Under the pieces are notes generated by a model. It had not been told where the DNA came from, ran no database searches, and was given only the letters and a program-made list of their open reading frames with translations. A stretch of DNA of 64,000 bases from a virus. The stretch lies in IMG/VR virus record IMGVR_UViG_3300012346_000329, positions 10,008-74,007 of that record, one strand, 5' to 3'. Positions 5,878 through 15,403 of this stretch are shown here, piece by piece. The first letter of the stretch is position 1; the number at the start of each line of letters is the position of its first letter. Both the position numbers and the translations under genes were made by a program.

Positions 5878-6216
5878 ATGGCTAAAATTTTGGTGTTAGC
5901 ACCGTCAGGTTTCGGTAAGTCCACCAGTATAGGACAGATTCCAGAATTAGGAATTAAAGGATTAACTCCTGAAGAGACTTTTCTTATTTCAGTAACTTCT
6001 AAACCTCTTCCATTTAAAGGGAGTGGTGCAGCATATCCAATATGCCAACCTGGAGATTTAAAATCAGGTAGAAGAATCATTACTGATGATGCAAAAGCTA
6101 TAGCAGAAATCTTCTTAGCTTTAGTTGCAAGTCCTTACAAGAATATTGTATGGGATGACAGTAACTATGTTATGCAGAATTGGTATATGGCTAATGCTTT
6201 AGCTAAAGGTTGGGAT
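5878..6216 (+). CDS. AAA_24/Sak4-like P-loop ATPase, exon 1
   Basis: Walker A APSGFGKST and Walker B IVWDD. Homology ends at KGWD, where the intron begins. Confidence 0.85.
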
Positions 6217-6304
6217 AGAATGGTGTCCTCTTTCTAAGAAATTAGAAAGTAATTAAATTGGGCAAAAACGGTGAAAAGATTATAGATTTTTCATAAAAAA
6301 TGTT

Positions 6305-6312
6305 TATATTTG
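6305..6312 (+). promoter_or_regulatory. Bacteroidota sigma-A -7 element (TAnnTTTG) for the intron endonuclease
   Basis: TATATTTG ends 17 nt upstream of the ATG at 6329. Confidence 0.6.
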
Positions 6313-6328
6313 TACAAAATAAAATTGT

Positions 6329-7030
6329 ATGAAAATAAATAATTATAATAAAGACTTCTTTAAAGAAATTGACACAGAACTCAAGGCTTACATTTTAGGT
6401 TATATTGTAGCAGATGGTTGTATAACTATTGAACACAGACCTTTAAAACCTAATAATCCTATAAAAAGAGTTCAGTTTCAACCTTCTATAGATGATTTAC
6501 AAGTAATTACTTTGATCAGAGATGTTATTGCACCTACAAATAAGTTGACTATTGTCACTAATAAAAGAGAAGGTAACAGAAAAGATACAGTAAAACTTAG
6601 ACTTGCGTGTACTGAAATAGTTAAAGACTTAATGACCCTTTACAATGTAAAACCTAGAAAAACTTATGATACAACTTTTAGATTTCCTAATATTAGAGAA
6701 GATTTAAAAAGACATTTTATAAGAGGTTTTATAGATGGAGATGGTAGTATAGGTACAAGACATTTTTCTATGATTTGCAACTCAAAATTATTTGCAGAAG
6801 ATATTTTAAAAGAATTTTTAAAAGCTATACCTAATTTGAAATACTATATTTATGATGAAAATAGAAGTCAAACTACTTATTATTCTTTACACTTTAGTGT
6901 AAATAAAAAATCAAGAGTTGATTTATTTAATTTTATCTACAAAAACTGTAATTTCAGGTTAAATAGAAAGTATGAAAAAGCTCTCAATGCCGTGTTAAAC
7001 AGTAACAGTAAAGAGTTATTGTCAATGTAA
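6329..7030 (+). CDS. Double-motif LAGLIDADG homing endonuclease (intron-encoded)
   Basis: Motifs AYILGYIVADGCI and HFIRGFIDGDGSI. The ORF 3' end runs into the intron core. Confidence 0.92.
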   Translation: MKINNYNKDFFKEIDTELKAYILGYIVADGCITIEHRPLKPNNPIKRVQFQPSIDDLQVITLIRDVIAPTNKLTIVTNKREGNRKDTVKLRLACTEIVKDLMTLYNVKPRKTYDTTFRFPNIREDLKRHFIRGFIDGDGSIGTRHFSMICNSKLFAEDILKEFLKAIPNLKYYIYDENRSQTTYYSLHFSVNKKSRVDLFNFIYKNCNFRLNRKYEKALNAVLNSNSKELLSM

Positions 7031-7189
7031 CGCATAGGAACTGAAACTCTTAATAAGAGAATATAATGTTCCCAAGAGTGTCCAATACCTGACCAAATAA
7101 AGTTGAAGGTAAAAATGTATGCTGACCTTACAGGAGATATAAGTACTGTAAGAACTAGAGGATAAAAAGCCTTTAGGATAACAAGGGTG

Positions 7190-7561
7190 GCCCCTAAGCA
7201 AATTGGTTTTATGATGGGTAGAATCTTTGATGCTATTGAGAAGTTAGATGCTGCAGGTAAAAATGTAATCATCTTAGCTCATGGTGACAGTGTTCCTGGA
7301 CCTGATGGTAGAATCTATATGAAGTACAAATCTACAGGTAAGATGGTAGATGAGTATTTGACTGTAGAGGGTAAAGTAGACGTAACTCTTATTGGTATTA
7401 GTAGATATGATGCTACTGATAAAAAAGCAGTAAAAGAGTTCTTAACCAATGAAAATGAGCAATATTCTTCAGCTAAATCTCCTATTGGAATGTTTGATAA
7501 ACAATTCATTCCTAATGATTTAGGACATGTAGTAGAGAAAATTGCTGAGTATTATGGCTAG
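7190..7561 (+). CDS. AAA_24/Sak4-like ATPase, exon 2
   Basis: IILAH and KSTGKMVDEYLTVEGKVD resemble the C-terminal half of AAA_24. The spliced product is 236 aa. Confidence 0.85.
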   Translation, partial: APKQIGFMMGRIFDAIEKLDAAGKNVIILAHGDSVPGPDGRIYMKYKSTGKMVDEYLTVEGKVDVTLIGISRYDATDKKAVKEFLTNENEQYSSAKSPIGMFDKQFIPNDLGHVVEKIAEYYG

Positions 7562-8992: not shown

Positions 8993-10021
8993 ATGAGCTT
9001 ATTTCAATACAATTCAGATAAACTTGATAGAAGAGGATATATAAGTAAGGAAAGCATTTTGTCTTTAGTTACTCAAGAAGATGTATTTGAGTTAGTGTTC
9101 AAATTTAAACCTGAAGAATTTGAGTATGTAGTATCTCCTTTAAGAAATGATGATGTACCAGGATGTTGGTTTTCTTATCATGATAATGGTACTCTCTATT
9201 TTGTAGACTTTGGTAATTCTAGGACTCATAGTGATTGTTTTAATATAGTCCAGGACTATTACAAATTTCCAAACTTCTATTTGACTTTAGAATTTATTCA
9301 TAACTCTTTAATTAGAGGTAAGACTGAATTAAAGGAAATAGAACCTAAAAAAATAATCCAAAAAGTATCCAAAGAAGGAGTCAAACTCTTAATAGAAGCA
9401 AGACCATTTAATGAGCAAGATGGCTATTTTTGGTCTAAGTATGGTATTAGTAAAGCCAATCTAAAAGAAGACAGAGTTTTTCCTATTCATAGATTATATG
9501 CTTTGAATACTAAAACAGGAAGTCATGCTATTGAATGCAAAGATTTAGCATACAGTTACACTGATTTTCCTGAAGCTAGAAAGAAAATCTATTTTCCTTT
9601 AAGACAAGGAAAGAATAGGTTCATTACTAATTGTAATAAAGATGATGTAGGTGGCATCAACTCTCTGTCTCAATATAGTAAGCAACTTATTATTTCTAAA
9701 AGCTACAAGGATTATAGAGTACTTAAAAATAATGGAAAAAATGTAGTTTGGTTTCAAAATGAAGGTATGATACCCAATAATGAAATTATAAACAAATTGG
9801 TTAAACTTTATTCAGAAATTATTGTATGGTTTGACAATGATCAGCCTGGAATTATAGCTTCAGAAAAAGTCAAACAACATATAAATTCCATTATCCCAAG
9901 TAGAGCTAAAAATCTATGGCTACCTGAGAGAGGGTTAGAAATAGGAGTTAAAGACCCTTCAGATTGTATAGCTAAAGACCCTATTTATTTTCAACAATTC
10001 TTAAAAGACTTTACAAAATGA
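8993..10021 (+). CDS. dnaG: DNA primase (TOPRIM, crAss-like type)
   Basis: N-terminal SPLRNDDVPG (degenerate zinc-binding-domain signature), TOPRIM IISKSYKD, WFDND and KDPSD. Confidence 0.85.
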   Translation: MSLFQYNSDKLDRRGYISKESILSLVTQEDVFELVFKFKPEEFEYVVSPLRNDDVPGCWFSYHDNGTLYFVDFGNSRTHSDCFNIVQDYYKFPNFYLTLEFIHNSLIRGKTELKEIEPKKIIQKVSKEGVKLLIEARPFNEQDGYFWSKYGISKANLKEDRVFPIHRLYALNTKTGSHAIECKDLAYSYTDFPEARKKIYFPLRQGKNRFITNCNKDDVGGINSLSQYSKQLIISKSYKDYRVLKNNGKNVVWFQNEGMIPNNEIINKLVKLYSEIIVWFDNDQPGIIASEKVKQHINSIIPSRAKNLWLPERGLEIGVKDPSDCIAKDPIYFQQFLKDFTK

Positions 10022-10557
10022 ATTTCAATCATATTCATCATTCTTGGAAACCCCTTCTAAGAGAATTTAATACAGATGCTTTTCTTTACTTTAAGAATGA
10101 AGTCCTTCCAAAAGAAAAATATTACCCTGAAGCTGATAAAGTTTTCAGGGTTTTTTCTATGCCTGTGTCAGCTATTAAAATAGTAGTTATTGGCTCATGG
10201 AAACACCCTAATATTAGAGAAATAGAAAAGCAAGGCTTGTTCTGGCTACCTATTTCTTTAACACAAGGTGTAGATGTGGACCACACAGAATATTGGGAGC
10301 CCTTCATTAAAAAGGTAGTGTATTTTATATCCAAGAGTAACCCTACTATTTGGATAATGCCTACAACAGAAGCACAAAGATTTACAGCTAATCTACCTGT
10401 CAAATCTATATTTAATGTGCTAAGATATGATGATAGCCTTATTAATCAGATTCCCATCAATGTAGATTACAACTATGTGTTTAAAGGTATTTATGTAAAT
10501 ACTGAACACATAAACATCCTCCTAAAGAGATTAGGTAGGGAAACAATTAATTGGTAA
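10018..10557 (+). CDS. Uracil-DNA-glycosylase-like protein, apparently catalytically degenerate
   Basis: The N-terminus HHSWKPLL...YYPEADKVFRVF...IKIVVIG aligns with UNG, but GQDPY is replaced by GSWKH. Confidence 0.7.
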   Translation: MNFNHIHHSWKPLLREFNTDAFLYFKNEVLPKEKYYPEADKVFRVFSMPVSAIKIVVIGSWKHPNIREIEKQGLFWLPISLTQGVDVDHTEYWEPFIKKVVYFISKSNPTIWIMPTTEAQRFTANLPVKSIFNVLRYDDSLINQIPINVDYNYVFKGIYVNTEHINILLKRLGRETINW

Positions 10558-10575: not shown

Positions 10576-11352
10576 ATGAGTGAAGTACAAGCTCCGGTTA
10601 CTACTGAAAGAGAAGTAACAATTTATGCCACTAGAGGTGGTAACATGAAAAAAATCATGACATCTGTTAAAACTTGGGGAGAATTACAACCTTTAGTTAG
10701 AAGAGAAGGTTTTGATTTAGGTTCATTATTAGCTGCTGAGAACATCAACAAGACAGACCTTGTTAATGATTTAGCAATATTACCTGAAGGAAACTTCAGA
10801 TTATTCTTAAGACCAAAACAAACTAAGTCTGGTGCAACTCCTGACAGAAAAGAATGTTTTGCTATTATCAAAGCTCACTTAGCTGTTTACCCTAATGATA
10901 AACAAAAGTTTATCATTGATGGTAAAAACATGACTCAGTTATCTACTCCTGTAGTACAGGATTTAGTGGCTAAGTATTGTAAAGCTAGTAAAAGTACTTC
11001 TACACCTGTAGCTACAGCTATAGAAACTCCAGTTAAAGAAAAAGCTCCAAAAGCTGAAGTTGTAAAAAAAGTAGAAGATGTTGTAGAATCTGTAAAAGAA
11101 TCTAAAACTGAAAGCAATGTAGAAGTAGGTACAAAAGTTAAAGATTTAACTGATGCAGAAAGAGTAGAAGGAGCTTTATCTTTATTATCTTCTTTAGGTC
11201 AGTATGAGTCTTATGCTAAAGTAGAAAAGCGTTTGAATAGACTTTCTGATGAAATAGCTATTGCAAATGCTCCTGCTCCAGAAATGAGAGAAGAAACTGA
11301 AGAAGAGGCTTTAGCTAGAGAAGCTAGAGAACTGTCTGCAGGTTACAGATAA
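10576..11352 (+). CDS. Ubiquitin-like (beta-grasp) protein with C-terminal extension
   Basis: Residues ~12-86 follow a beta-beta-alpha-beta-beta pattern (REVTIYA / MKKIMT / TWGELQPLVRREG / ... / FRLFLRP) ending in KQTKSG86. The gene directly precedes E2, JAB and E1 genes. Confidence 0.65.
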   Translation: MSEVQAPVTTEREVTIYATRGGNMKKIMTSVKTWGELQPLVRREGFDLGSLLAAENINKTDLVNDLAILPEGNFRLFLRPKQTKSGATPDRKECFAIIKAHLAVYPNDKQKFIIDGKNMTQLSTPVVQDLVAKYCKASKSTSTPVATAIETPVKEKAPKAEVVKKVEDVVESVKESKTESNVEVGTKVKDLTDAERVEGALSLLSSLGQYESYAKVEKRLNRLSDEIAIANAPAPEMREETEEEALAREARELSAGYR

Positions 11353-11359
11353 TATTAAT

Positions 11360-11395
11360 AAAGGGCTTATGTAATGTAAGCCCTTTTAATTTTTT
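11360..11395 (+). terminator. Intrinsic terminator between the Ubl and E2-like genes
   Basis: Perfect 10-bp stem AAAGGGCTTA/TAAGCCCTTT followed by a T-rich run. Confidence 0.8.
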
Positions 11396-11400
11396 ATATT

Positions 11401-12594
11401 ATGTATATAGATGATCATCAATTACCAGCTTATGAAGAAGTAGGTCAAATACTTCATAATGCTTTATTAATGAATACGCATAAAGATAAAAACTTTCTAC
11501 AATTTTTGTTTGATAAAGGTAAACTACACTTACATGGCTACCCTAATCCTAATCAAAAAGCTATCAATGAATTTTTTAGACTTCTAGATTTATTTGAAGC
11601 TAAATACAAAAGTTTTTATGACCTAGGTTTTCATACTAAAGATGGATACTTACAACCTTACTTTAAAGTTTTATACCCCAAGTTTACTATTGAAAATAGT
11701 GTAGGGGAAAGCCATCAAATAAGAGATTTAATAGTAGTTCACAGAATAGCTTATAATACAAATGAAGAAGGTCATATCTATACTAGAAAACCTTTAGGAG
11801 GCAGACTAAGTAAATTTAAACTAGAAGTAGTAGGAGGTTATCAACAGAGTCATTTAAGTGCTTATTCAAATTGGAAAAATGACCCTTTTTATACTTCAGA
11901 ATTTTGTGTAGGTGGAGATACTGATGTAAGTAGAATGATAGCTGAATTTAAAGTAGAGATGGATTGGGACAGATATGAATTATACTTATTTTGTATTGAT
12001 TCTATGGTTATTTGGGAGTCTTTAGAAGGTATTCCTCATAGAAAAATAAGAGATATTAAGAATGCTCTCAACAACAAAGTTACTTCTGTAGATGCATCTT
12101 GTGTAAGAAGAGTTGTTGATAAAATTACAAAAAATGAAATTGCTTTAGACTTAGACTTTTACATAGAAAATGGTTTATACAGAATTAGACCTAATGAGAA
12201 AGCTAATGAGTTTATTAAAAACATAGTTTTACAAACTCTTACTTTTGAGCAATACAAAAAAATCTTAGTTAGTAGGGTACCTAATACTTTCAATGAATTT
12301 CTTCAAATGAAAGCTGAGCAAGATGCTCAACAAAACTATAAAATAAGTTATCCTACTAGATACACTATTTTTAGAGGCAAGAAAGTCTTTGCCAAAATAC
12401 TTAAAGAAGACACAAGAAATGAACCTGTTGTCTCTTTAGAAAACCTTATTGTTTATCCTAATTTTTTAAAAGATGTCCTTAGTCAACTTGAGTCAAGAAT
12501 CTATAGCAAAGCAGTTACCCAGAGTGGAATTAAAATCTACAATTCCCTTGGTAATGCCAATAGAAGTATTACATCAGATTCAGTATCTGTGTAA
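11401..12594 (+). CDS. Prokaryotic E2-like (UBC-fold) conjugating protein
   Basis: A beta-meander region is followed by QSH151L...FC169VG and then a helix ELYLFCIDSMVIWESLEGIP. This matches the E2 His...Cys layout, and the gene context is Ubl/JAB/E1. Confidence 0.65.
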   Translation: MYIDDHQLPAYEEVGQILHNALLMNTHKDKNFLQFLFDKGKLHLHGYPNPNQKAINEFFRLLDLFEAKYKSFYDLGFHTKDGYLQPYFKVLYPKFTIENSVGESHQIRDLIVVHRIAYNTNEEGHIYTRKPLGGRLSKFKLEVVGGYQQSHLSAYSNWKNDPFYTSEFCVGGDTDVSRMIAEFKVEMDWDRYELYLFCIDSMVIWESLEGIPHRKIRDIKNALNNKVTSVDASCVRRVVDKITKNEIALDLDFYIENGLYRIRPNEKANEFIKNIVLQTLTFEQYKKILVSRVPNTFNEFLQMKAEQDAQQNYKISYPTRYTIFRGKKVFAKILKEDTRNEPVVSLENLIVYPNFLKDVLSQLESRIYSKAVTQSGIKIYNSLGNANRSITSDSVSV

Positions 12595-13717
12595 AAATAT
12601 ACCAAAAGTAGAGTGGTCAGGTGCTCTATTTTATACTACAGAAGGTAGTATTGAAAAACCTGGAACATTCAAAATTACTTTAAAGACAATTCTTCCATTA
12701 GATATGGGTAGTTCAGCTTATACTGAATACAATCTTGATGAAAGATTTATGGATTTTATTGAAGAAGATTTTGAAGAAAGATGTACTTGGAAATTAGGTC
12801 ATATTCATAGTCATAATGTAATGAGTGTTTTCTTCTCAGGTACAGATATGGCAGAGCTTAATGACAATGCTCCAGCACATAATTTTTATCTTTCTTTGAT
12901 AGTAAATAACTATATGGACTTTATTGCCAAAGTTGCTTTTATTGGAGAAGCTAAAAAAGATATTAAACAGGTTCCTTATACAGCTAAGAATGCTGAAGGC
13001 CATAATTATATCATTGAAAGACAAGACTTTGAAGTTAAAACTAAAAAGTTGTTTATTTATGATTGTGACATTGATACTCCTAAGAATACAATCTTAGTGA
13101 CAGATCAATTTTCTGCTCAAGTAGCTAAAATTATGGAGCCTAAACCTGTAAAAAAAGTAGAATCTAAATGGCCTGCTACTCCTACTACTACAGGAAAGGG
13201 ATGGCAAAGAAATGATAATACCAGGCAATTCAAATCACAAGAAGACAGGGAAATGGAAAGTTGGAACAAAAGCTTTCAGAAAGAAACTAAAAAACCTTTC
13301 AATAATTGGGAAGATTGGGAATTACCTATTTCTACTTTACTGGCTGAAGATTTAGAAGAAGAAGATTTAAAAGCAATGTATATTTATAATTTTGCTAAAG
13401 AATTATTTAATTTTACAGGAGGTTCTGCACAAGAAGAAGAAACTTTAGAAGATGTTTTAGATATGTTAGTAGAGTTTAACTTAACTCCTTCTGAATTAGC
13501 TAAATCCGTAATTACAGAGTATGCTAAAGATTTTAATAAATATTTTCCTAAAGCTAATGCTACTGAATTTGTTCAGTATACCCATGAAACTTTAGATTTA
13601 TTAGAAGATGTGAAACAACTTTATCCTGAAATTGGATTAACTATTAGAACTATTAGTTCTATGATTACTAAATTTATAGAAAATGAGACAGACAAGAGAC
13701 ACAACCCAGCAGTCTAG
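12473..13717 (+). CDS. JAB/MPN+ (JAMM) metalloprotease with acidic C-terminal extension
   Basis: Catalytic E47 (EWSG) and an exact HxH-x7-S-x2-D motif (H112, H114, S122, D125). Confidence 0.9.
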   Translation: MSLVNLSQESIAKQLPRVELKSTIPLVMPIEVLHQIQYLCKNIPKVEWSGALFYTTEGSIEKPGTFKITLKTILPLDMGSSAYTEYNLDERFMDFIEEDFEERCTWKLGHIHSHNVMSVFFSGTDMAELNDNAPAHNFYLSLIVNNYMDFIAKVAFIGEAKKDIKQVPYTAKNAEGHNYIIERQDFEVKTKKLFIYDCDIDTPKNTILVTDQFSAQVAKIMEPKPVKKVESKWPATPTTTGKGWQRNDNTRQFKSQEDREMESWNKSFQKETKKPFNNWEDWELPISTLLAEDLEEEDLKAMYIYNFAKELFNFTGGSAQEEETLEDVLDMLVEFNLTPSELAKSVITEYAKDFNKYFPKANATEFVQYTHETLDLLEDVKQLYPEIGLTIRTISSMITKFIENETDKRHNPAV

Positions 13718-14384
13718 ATTTAAAGATGCTCCATGGTTTCCTAAAAACAATGAAGTGTGTATGGTAGGTGGAGCAGGTGGTATTGGTTCTTGGTTATGTT
13801 ATTTCTTAACTAAGATTGGTTTTAGAGTTAACCTCTATGACTTTGATACTGTAGAAGACCATAATCTAGGTGGTCAGTTATTTATGCAAGCTGACTTAGG
13901 TCAACCTAAAGTAACAGCAGTAGCAAGAGTTGTAAACTCTTTTTGTAATACTCCTATAGCTACATTCAATGAAAGAATTGATATGAATACAATGACACAT
14001 TACTTTATGTTTTCAGCTTTTGATAACATGGAAGCAAGAAATGCATTGTTTCATGTCTGGAAAAAGTCCTGGGGCTCAGTTCCTTTAGCGGTGACTCCAA
14101 TCTTTATAGATGGTAGATTAGAGATAGAGCAATTACAGATATTCTGTGTTACTCCAGAGAATGCTGACAGGTATGAAAGAGACCATTTGTTTCATGATTC
14201 AGTAGTAGAAGAAGCACCTTGTACTATGAAACAAAGTTCTCATACAGCAGCTATGATAGGAACTCTTATGACTTCCTATTTTACTAATCATATTGCTAAC
14301 ATTTATAGTGGGGAGACTATCAGAGAAGTCCCTTTCTATTATGAATTTGTAGTTCCTATGAACTACTCAGCTTCTGAATTATGA
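13683..14384 (+). CDS. ThiF/E1-like adenylating enzyme
   Basis: Arg finger SR12F, GGAGGIG, DFD(TVEDHNL), K76, FDNMEAR and IDGR. Candidate thioester Cys180 lies in EAPCTMKQ. Confidence 0.9.
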   Translation: MRQTRDTTQQSRFKDAPWFPKNNEVCMVGGAGGIGSWLCYFLTKIGFRVNLYDFDTVEDHNLGGQLFMQADLGQPKVTAVARVVNSFCNTPIATFNERIDMNTMTHYFMFSAFDNMEARNALFHVWKKSWGSVPLAVTPIFIDGRLEIEQLQIFCVTPENADRYERDHLFHDSVVEEAPCTMKQSSHTAAMIGTLMTSYFTNHIANIYSGETIREVPFYYEFVVPMNYSASEL

Positions 14385-15403
14385 GAATAACATGTCTTTC
14401 ATTAGGAAATCTGAATGCAGACCCTTTTAAAATTACTGTATTAGAAGCCAATACTTATATTCCTCTTTATGGTGCTCACACCTTTTATAAAGGAGAAAAA
14501 GATATTACACTTTTATATAGACCTTTAATGGAAACAGGTAAAGGGCATACTAAGAAACCTAATACTTTAAAAAATATAAAAGATGCTTTAGAGATGGCCA
14601 TCACACCAAGAAGAATTCTTATAGGTAATAAAAATTATTACTTTATAAAAGGTGCAATGTACACTGAGGGTGGGAATCCTCTTATGGTGTTAGGTATGTC
14701 TAAAGAAGCTTTTAAAAATCCTGATATTCCTAATTTCTCTGATAATTATGGAGAATCAGCTAGTCTTTTTGACTATAAAAATTTTGTTATGTTTTACTCC
14801 ACATCTTTCTTTACTGAGCCTAGTCTTGCTCCTTTAAACAGAAGATTTCAAAAAGAAATATTAATGTCTTGCTATGAAAAAGGTATAGAGGTAAGAGTGA
14901 TTACCTCATCAGAAATTGAAAAGAATACCTTTGCAAACATTTTTGAAATCCCTAAAGCTAACTCTGTTAGTCAATTAGAGGAGTACATGAACAAAGTACT
15001 ACCAACAATTTTATACACAAAAGAAGAGGACACTTTTGTATTTGAAGAGTTGACAGTACCTGAAGTTGTTCAAAACCATGAATTATCTGTGGAAGAAGAA
15101 GCTCTACTATTTGATTCTGAAACTAGTCAGGAGTTGCCTGGAGTTAATCCTACAACTTTTGATATTACTCTTAATACAGAAGAAGTAGTTGAATTACTTC
15201 CTATTTTTAGAGACCCTGAAATAGAAGAATTAGAAAGAGAAGCTGCAACTTGGGATTCTGCCCATACAGAACCTGCTTATGTAGCTCCTGAGTATCCTAT
15301 AGTTCCAGAAGAAAGTATTATTCTAACACCTATAGGAGAAAGGGTAACTAATGTTTCTTTTAGAACCACTAGACCAATAGAGCTTATTGATGACACAGAA
15401 TAA
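14381..15403 (+). CDS. Hypothetical protein coupled to E1 (globular N-terminus, acidic tail)
   Basis: ATGA overlap with the E1 stop. No recognised motif. Confidence 0.7.
   Translation: MRITCLSLGNLNADPFKITVLEANTYIPLYGAHTFYKGEKDITLLYRPLMETGKGHTKKPNTLKNIKDALEMAITPRRILIGNKNYYFIKGAMYTEGGNPLMVLGMSKEAFKNPDIPNFSDNYGESASLFDYKNFVMFYSTSFFTEPSLAPLNRRFQKEILMSCYEKGIEVRVITSSEIEKNTFANIFEIPKANSVSQLEEYMNKVLPTILYTKEEDTFVFEELTVPEVVQNHELSVEEEALLFDSETSQELPGVNPTTFDITLNTEEVVELLPIFRDPEIEELEREAATWDSAHTEPAYVAPEYPIVPEESIILTPIGERVTNVSFRTTRPIELIDDTE

Follow-up and report, generated by a model that had tools for sequence, protein, structure and literature searches.

A putative ubiquitin-like precursor protein and its neighbouring enzyme genes in the replication module of a crAss-like phage

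The Ubl-fusion gene and its product

The window analysed here is a stretch of 64,000 nucleotides (positions 10,008 to 74,007) from the virus record IMGVR_UViG_3300012346_000329, which is 93,009 bp long and has a CheckV completeness of 99%. Its replication module is of the crAss-like type, with a helicase, an ATPase, a primase and a UDG-like gene followed by five co-oriented genes, hereafter called the cassette. The first cassette gene encodes a protein of 258 amino acids (aa) that starts with a ubiquitin-like (Ubl) domain and continues for 172 residues (the cargo) after a glycine, Gly86. Based on its predicted fold, its conservation and its neighbours, this protein would be a pre-protein that is cut after Gly86 by the JAB-type protease of the same cassette, giving a conjugatable Ubl and a second protein. 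We assign this reading a probability of roughly 60%.

The initial annotation had placed the open reading frame (ORF) at 10576-11352 of the plus strand, and these coordinates proved right. Gly86 is indeed encoded by the ggt codon at 10831-10833, in the context RPKQTKSG followed by ATPDRK, and the protein does end in ELSAGYR, with G256 at 11341-11343. We have modelled the protein with AlphaFold2 from an alignment of 134 diverse homologues, with a mean predicted local distance difference test (pLDDT) score of 85.5. The model matched the annotated layout of a Ubl domain, a small helical domain, a K/E/P/T-rich linker and a C-terminal helix. The gene and its features are as follows:

10576-11352, plus strand: Ubl-fusion gene (258 aa), first gene of the cassette
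10576-10833, plus strand: Ubl beta-grasp domain, residues 1-86 (fold about 7-84), with the flexible tail RPKQTKSG (AlphaFold2, VIA-align, Foldseek)
10822-10833, plus strand: T83-K84-S85-G86, the motif of highest conservation in the protein, with Gly86 as the proposed scissile and activated residue (alignment of 145 representatives)
10834-10848, plus strand: junction linker, residues 87-91, prime side of the proposed cut (variable in sequence and length)
10846-10995, plus strand: small helical domain, residues 91-140, with the motif G116-K-N118-x-T120-Q-L-x-T124 (AlphaFold2, conservation)
10996-11151, plus strand: disordered K/E/P/A/V/T-rich linker, residues 141-192 (pLDDT 52-64)
11152-11349, plus strand: C-terminal helical hairpin, residues 193-255, with the terminal motif E-x-x-[LM]-x-x-G256-[FY]257(-R) (AlphaFold2, conservation)
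11360-11396, plus strand: intrinsic-terminator-like hairpin (11360-11386, 12-bp stem) and T-run, the cassette having no other intergenic gap

The N-terminal domain was modelled as a beta-beta-alpha-beta-beta grasp (strands 12-18, 24-29, 51-55 and 74-80, helix 34-43) with a pLDDT of about 97 over residues 12-80, dipping to a block mean of about 70 over residues 81-90. When compared with the PDB by Foldseek, this domain matched only ubiquitin-like folds, with a probability of about 1.0 (Hub1, SUMO, UBX, ISG15 and Caldiarchaeum ubiquitin). VIA-align, which is independent of Foldseek, gave Z scores of 8-9.5 and a root-mean-square deviation of about 2 Å over some 70 residues when residues 7-84 were compared with UBX, SUMO, ubiquitin and FAT10. 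It paired ubiquitin residues 1-75 with model residues 12-84, and Gly86 would therefore stand at about the position of the C-terminal Gly-Gly of ubiquitin. The last strand (FRLFLRP) also closely resembles that of ubiquitin (LHLVLRL). At the sequence level, the whole protein had no match in Pfam, NCBIfam or PADLOC and matched a single unnamed family in PHROGs, and searches of PDB sequence profiles returned nothing credible for either the whole protein or the cargo alone.

The cargo was predicted to comprise two helical parts separated by the disordered linker. The small helical domain contains helices 91-104, 106-112, 124-134 and 136-140 (pLDDT about 95 through residue 130, with a mean of 77 for block 131-140), and the C-terminal hairpin helices 193-205, 211-231 and 242-255 (pLDDT about 94). 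The linker between them is highly variable among homologues in both length and sequence. The composition of the cargo varies as well, the homologue P0148 being devoid of the helical domain and that of phage cr126_1 (308 aa; locus L006, 2323-3249) carrying an extra domain that BFVD names as a bL12 C-terminal domain. Residues 87-258 had no Pfam, PDB-sequence or usable ESM Atlas match, the fold searches being filled by the beta-grasp, and a Pfam scan of 134 family members for a cargo function gave scattered chance matches only.

The terminator-like element downstream of the gene recurs at the equivalent place, with unrelated sequence, in FpV4, crAss001, cr85_1, cr128_1, cr126_1, L028 and L036 (loci L001, L003, L004, L006, L007, L028 and L036), and is absent from cr111_1, with its 9-nt gap, and from L034. 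A terminator in this position suggests that more transcript is made of the fusion gene than of the enzyme genes that follow it.

Conservation at the Gly86 junction and at the C-terminus

HMMER, run exhaustively on 1.84 billion cluster representatives, retrieved 671 clusters at E <= 0.001. The counts given below refer to 145 full-length representatives of 50%-identity clusters, most of which are 30-45% identical to the query. Gly86, on whose conservation the initial annotation depended, was found in 145/145 sequences. Lys84 was present in 144 (one Arg), Thr83 in 84%, and position 85 was occupied by Ser (122), Ala (20) or Gly (3), so that the T-K-S-G motif is conserved above every other part of the protein. 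The K-[SAG]-G motif is also present in the homologues of FpV4, crAss001, cr111_1, cr85_1, cr128_1 and cr126_1.

The residues that follow Gly86 behaved differently. The P1' position held 15 different residues, never Pro, and the spacer between Gly86 and the next conserved position (Lys92) ranged from 1 to 17 residues. The same arrangement was seen in 80 Steigviridae loci, in which KKI[KR]SGA and a conserved MSR are separated by an indel of 0-3 residues. An invariant non-prime side next to a prime side that is free in sequence and length is the pattern expected of a Ubl/deubiquitinase site, because protease and E1 would read the Ubl body and its tail and would be indifferent to what comes after. 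The initial annotation had anticipated a sharp fall in conservation after the K-S-G. This held locally, over residues 87-91, but conservation resumed in the second domain (residues 92-134), with Asn118 at 92% and Thr120 at 97%. Among close relatives, this domain is as invariant as the Ubl.

A natural split of the gene was found in phage cr106_1, where it is interrupted at the S-G/A junction by an HNH endonuclease gene. The first ORF (92 aa) is about 80% identical in DNA to the gene of crAss001 gp79, the counterpart of the fusion, and ends in KKIKSGKF. The HNH ORF begins one base past its stop codon, and a new ORF with its own ATG starts fifteen bases past the HNH stop. This C-terminal ORF reads METKI-MTRNELIAEAKRLGF..., matching the AMSRAEAYNAIKARGL... 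part of gp79, and the DNA homology of cr106_1 with gp79 stops at nucleotide 263, just 5' of the Ser-Gly codons. The interruption is not an intein, because the two halves lie in different frames. As to a group I intron, no Rfam match was obtained at E <= 1, and the sequence not taken up by the HNH ORF amounts to only about 40 nt. If no unrecognised intron restores the fusion, cr106_1 would thus make a Ubl with a two-residue extension and a separate C-terminal protein, and the covalent link between the two halves would be dispensable. A second break just past Gly86, in contig L032 (6001-6437, reading KQTKSGS), joins the gene to a segment resembling the middle of a primase; it is probably a chimeric assembly and was left unused.

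The same data bear on the possibility that the 258-aa protein is never cut and that its Ubl is an integral domain of the Rad23/Dsk2 type, docking the protein on the E1, the JAB, the E2-like protein or replication proteins. In that case, the K-S-G would serve for recognition or as a hinge rather than for cleavage, and the enzymes would have another substrate. Such an adaptor would agree with the fact that, in nearly all members, the Ubl is conserved along with both the second domain and the C-terminal helices, and Rad23-like UBL proteins were also retrieved in the viral fold search. However, it does not account well for a glycine kept in 145/145 sequences, preceded by a small residue and followed by an unconstrained prime side of variable length, nor for the presence of the two halves as separate ORFs in cr106_1. 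Integral UBL domains are not known to retain an invariant Gly at their end. In addition, the E1 needs a free carboxylate and the cassette holds no other candidate ending in Gly, the remaining proteins terminating in SDSVSV, NPAV, SASEL and DDTE. Hence, we consider an uncleaved adaptor unlikely.

We have then looked at the C-terminus, where the initial annotation had seen in G256 a possible second processing site. The substrate would in that case be the entire protein, by analogy with the CD-NTase of type II CBASS, with the JAB trimming Y257-R258 and the E1 activating Gly256. Close relatives (>=59% identity) all have G256 and Y257, the FpV4 and cr85_1 homologues end exactly in Gly, and a Gly followed by an aromatic or aliphatic residue lies within the last six residues of 91/145 representatives. 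Across the family, however, G256 is conserved in only 65%, together with E242 (74%), L246 (74%) and E249 (78%). The homologues of crAss001 (ending in MFDFVD), cr111_1 (LAMR) and cr128_1 (MFDFV) do not have this Gly, although the JAB, the E1 and, in the E2-like position, a gene for a protein of 370-445 aa are all retained in their phages. G256 also follows directly on the predicted helix 242-255 instead of standing in the flexible tail of a beta-grasp, and its activation would leave the invariant internal K-S-G unexplained. The proposal of a second site is therefore not supported, activation of Gly256 appearing very improbable, and a role in docking, as a helix or a motif, seems to us the better reading of the C-terminus.

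Steigviridae homologues (L007, 2286-2963, and the 80 loci L041-L120) carry a conserved E-I-[DN]-x-M-F-[DAN]-[FG] at their C-terminus in place of the terminal motif of the window protein, E-I-[DN]-x-M-F being continued in some by a Gly-containing [AVT]-G-M-G/D tail and in others without Gly. Their M-F-D-F end resembles the tails by which the T4 and RB69 polymerases bind their clamps, and we have not used this resemblance as evidence. No beta-clamp or gp45-type clamp was found in the phage genome.

The cassette enzymes and the proposed processing

The cassette adjoins the primase, and the genes around the fusion are arranged as follows:

8993-10021: primase
10018-10557: UDG-like gene
11401-12594, plus strand: E2-like protein, 397 aa (AlphaFold2 model, weak UBC-fold matches)
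12473-13717, plus strand: JAB/JAMM metalloprotease, 414 aa (weak Prok-JAB and PADLOC JAB matches, intact motif)
13683-14384, plus strand: ThiF/MoeB-type E1 adenylating enzyme, 233 aa (PF00899, E 8.9e-16)
14381-15403, plus strand: fifth cassette gene, 340 aa (syntenic in all long loci)

The family numbers at least 671 sequence clusters and is also represented in gut phages that have been cultured, crAss001 and DAC15 among them. The gene order of the cassette is identical in Flavobacterium phage FpV4, crAss001 (gp79-gp78-gp77-gp76-gp75), cr111_1, cr85_1, cr128_1 and cr126_1, and none of the related IMG/VR loci that extend over the neighbours departs from it. In FpV4 and in all IMG/VR loci of sufficient length, the fusion gene is followed by those of the 397-aa protein, the JAB and the E1, with JAB and E1 as separate ORFs in all loci. 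Annotated Steigviridae phages retain the JAB and the E1, with a gene for 370-445 aa where that of the 397-aa protein stands. Public records of crAss001 describe gp76 as a thiamine biosynthesis protein, gp77 as a metalloprotease-domain protein and gp79 as hypothetical. The product of the fifth gene had no family match and no ESM Atlas match.

The last 122 nt of the 397-aa gene (12473-12594) are also the first 122 nt of the JAB gene, read in a different frame, and both frames appear to be coding, since the JAB N-terminus is conserved among window-type relatives. Comparable annotated overlaps were found in FpV4 (125 nt), cr111_1 (56 nt), cr128_1 (50 nt) and cr85_1 (20 nt). Further upstream, the ATPase gene (5878-6237 and 7187-7561) is broken by a LAGLIDADG-type ORF (6329-7030), the interruption lying within 6217-7189 of the window.

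The 397-aa protein had no sequence match. Its AlphaFold2 model (pLDDT 83.7) showed weak but consistent similarity of residues ~25-220 to the UBC superfold, including the UEV domain of Tsg101 (Z 6.1), RWD domains, many E2s, BubB and Cap2, and His151 (11851-11853) and Cys169 (11905-11907) are invariant. On the strength of this weak similarity of a model, we have called the protein E2-like and not E2.

The JAB gave weak sequence matches (Prok-JAB, and a generic JAB model of PADLOC at E 0.013). Its active-site residues, E47 and H112-x-H114-x7-S122-x2-D125, were intact in 12/12 aligned homologues, from the window type to crAss001, and it is the most likely candidate for the processing enzyme.

The E1 is a single adenylation domain identified as ThiF by Pfam, with ThiF and MoeB as its best NCBIfam matches, and it aligned to the adenylation domains of UBA3, MoeB and SAE2. 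The GxGxxG motif (29-36), the Mg-binding Asp (D114, in FDNMEAR) and Cys180 (in APCTMKQ) are conserved. Compared with window-type and FpV4 E1 proteins, those of Steigviridae (L007, 5545-6696; L005, 5485-6696; L006, 5677-6690) are extended at the N-terminus by about 100-170 aa. At L009, 9038-10307 (IMGVR_UViG_3300044846_001842), the E1 match starts only at residue 68, about 1.27 kb past the end of the JAB gene, and the E1 gene is probably interrupted there by an intron or a homing-endonuclease gene.

An E1 of the minimal, single-domain ThiF/MoeB type, set in a neighbourhood of nucleotide and DNA metabolism, would also suit a sulfur carrier. Gly86 would then be exposed, adenylated and converted into a thiocarboxylate, as in ThiS, MoaD or TtuB, with the sulfur going to nucleotide or DNA modification. 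The TtuB-TtuC system of Thermus works alongside a JAMM protein, which counts in favour of this alternative. However, neither a PP-loop ATPase (PF01171) nor a rhodanese (PF00581) was found in the 93-kb, 99%-complete genome, with the controls positive and host enzymes as possible substitutes. A thioester relay is suggested by the invariant Cys of the conserved E2-like protein, and the tail is K-S-G rather than the usual Gly-Gly. These data make a role in sulfur transfer quite improbable.

Thus, we favour processing of a Ubl precursor, a cut by the JAB being the simplest reading because an E1 can act only on a free C-terminal carboxylate and the one Gly of the Ubl that never varies lies within the chain. 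The JAB would recognise the Ubl body and tail and cut the Gly86-Ala87 bond. The freed carboxylate of Gly86 would then be adenylated by the ThiF-type E1, and the Ubl would probably be passed to a cysteine (Cys180 of the E1 or Cys169 of the E2-like protein) and from there to a target. Residues 87-258 would be released as a separate protein with the predicted architecture of a helical domain, a disordered K/E/P/A linker and a hairpin with a docking-type C-terminal motif. The fusion would ensure one-to-one synthesis of both products and would keep the Ubl inert until processed, as is the case for ubiquitin-ribosomal-protein fusions and BubAB. The cleavable Ubl precursor foreseen in the initial annotation is consistent with the fold, the invariant K-[SAG]-G, the free prime side, the split in cr106_1, the modular make-up of the cargo, the synteny with the JAB, E1 and E2-like genes and the precedent of BubAB (see below), from which we infer the cut itself.

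Several observations weigh against this reading. Conservation picks up again directly past the junction, as would be compatible with an uncleaved two-domain protein, and a short stand-alone Ubl ending at the Gly was not found among close relatives, which yielded fragments only; this also speaks for the adaptor considered above. The interruption in cr106_1 could be an unrecognised intron that restores the fusion. The E2-like label derives from weak fold scores (Z 4-6, Foldseek E > 0.05), and our literature search found no proteomic data on Ubl conjugates in these phages. All E1 family members aligned have G/S-G where the canonical NLNRQ has its Arg (in the window, NLGGQ at 13863-13877, residues 61-65), so that the adenylation competence of the E1 is an assumption here. 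A conserved N-terminal S-R-F motif of the E1 might supply the Arg instead.

In a wider and more tentative view, which we consider possible but rather doubtful, crAss-like phages would run a ubiquitin-type tagging system of their own in the replication module, in which the JAB cut arms both the tag and an equal amount of a second factor acting at the replisome or on a host protein. If cleavage after Gly86 by the JAB were shown, it would open the questions of the target of the Ubl and of the role of the released 172-aa protein. The signature of a fixed non-prime and a free prime side could also help to find other hidden Ubl pre-proteins.

Comparison with known systems

Ubiquitin itself is made as a precursor. 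In UBA52 and RPS27A, the extension that is removed to expose the Gly is a functional protein produced in equal amount. On the wider and more tentative view given above, the phage protein would be a viral counterpart of these ubiquitin-ribosomal-protein fusions, with the JAB cut as the switch for both products. It differs from them in its K-S-G tail, which replaces R-G-G, in belonging to a viral system and in its cargo, which is unrelated to ribosomal proteins except for the bL12-named domain in cr126_1. Outside eukaryotes, work on ubiquitin-type conjugation has so far concerned archaea and the anti-phage defence of bacteria (CBASS, Bil and Bub), and here the kit would be borne by a phage.

Type II CBASS Cap2/Cap3 (PMC10097602) resembles the cassette in that both have a JAB partner and that the best PADLOC matches of the phage E1 were Cap2 E1-E2 models (E 2e-7). 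In CBASS, however, the conjugated C-terminus is that of the CD-NTase and not of a beta-grasp, and E2 and E1 are fused (PMC10097602).

The Bil system (BilABCD) has the same gene set of Ubl, E2, JAB and E1 (PMC10557695, as summarised in PMC11601596). The Bil E1 has an IAD-AAD-CYS architecture, whereas that of the phage is a single 233-aa domain, and Bil is a bacterial system directed against phages, whereas the present cassette is phage-encoded. Among the PADLOC Bil models, we obtained only a marginal match to BilD (E 0.0013 over 76 residues) and none to BilA, BilB or BilC, and at E <= 1 PADLOC gave no match for the Ubl or the 397-aa protein. With its single-domain E1 and no match to BilA, BilB or BilC, the cassette is not a member of Bil.

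A direct precedent for the proposed cut is type I Bub, in which the JAB domain of BubCD cuts BubAB immediately past the conserved G229, giving an active Ubl and a functional protein (Ye et al., PMC11601596). Edman sequencing, controlled by mutants of the active site, established where the cut falls (PMC11601596). Both systems have a Ubl fused after a conserved Gly to another protein, a JAB/JAMM peptidase in the operon and a small ThiF-type E1. In Bub, however, the cargo is an E2 (BubB), whereas that of the phage is predicted to be helical and disordered, with a UBC-like fold modelled for the separate 397-aa gene product. The JAB and E1 fused in BubCD are, like the E2-like protein, encoded by separate genes in the phage. 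Bub also includes the DUF6527 serine protease BubE; the only Pfam matches of the five phage cassette proteins were ThiF and a weak JAB, in a scan that included no search specific for DUF6527. Finally, Bub is a bacterial operon tied to defence regulators, and the phage cassette lies in a replication module. As its JAB and E1 are unfused and its E2-like fold appears to lie outside the cargo, the cassette is not a member of Bub.

Processing of a Ubl precursor by a JAMM protease has an archaeal parallel too, the Rpn11 homologue of Caldiarchaeum being described in PMC6043591 as processing pro-ubiquitin. We found no paper on the cassette or on the fusion in crAss-like phages, and by analogy the mechanism proposed for it would be that of BubAB, of the Bil pre-proteins and of the ubiquitin fusions.

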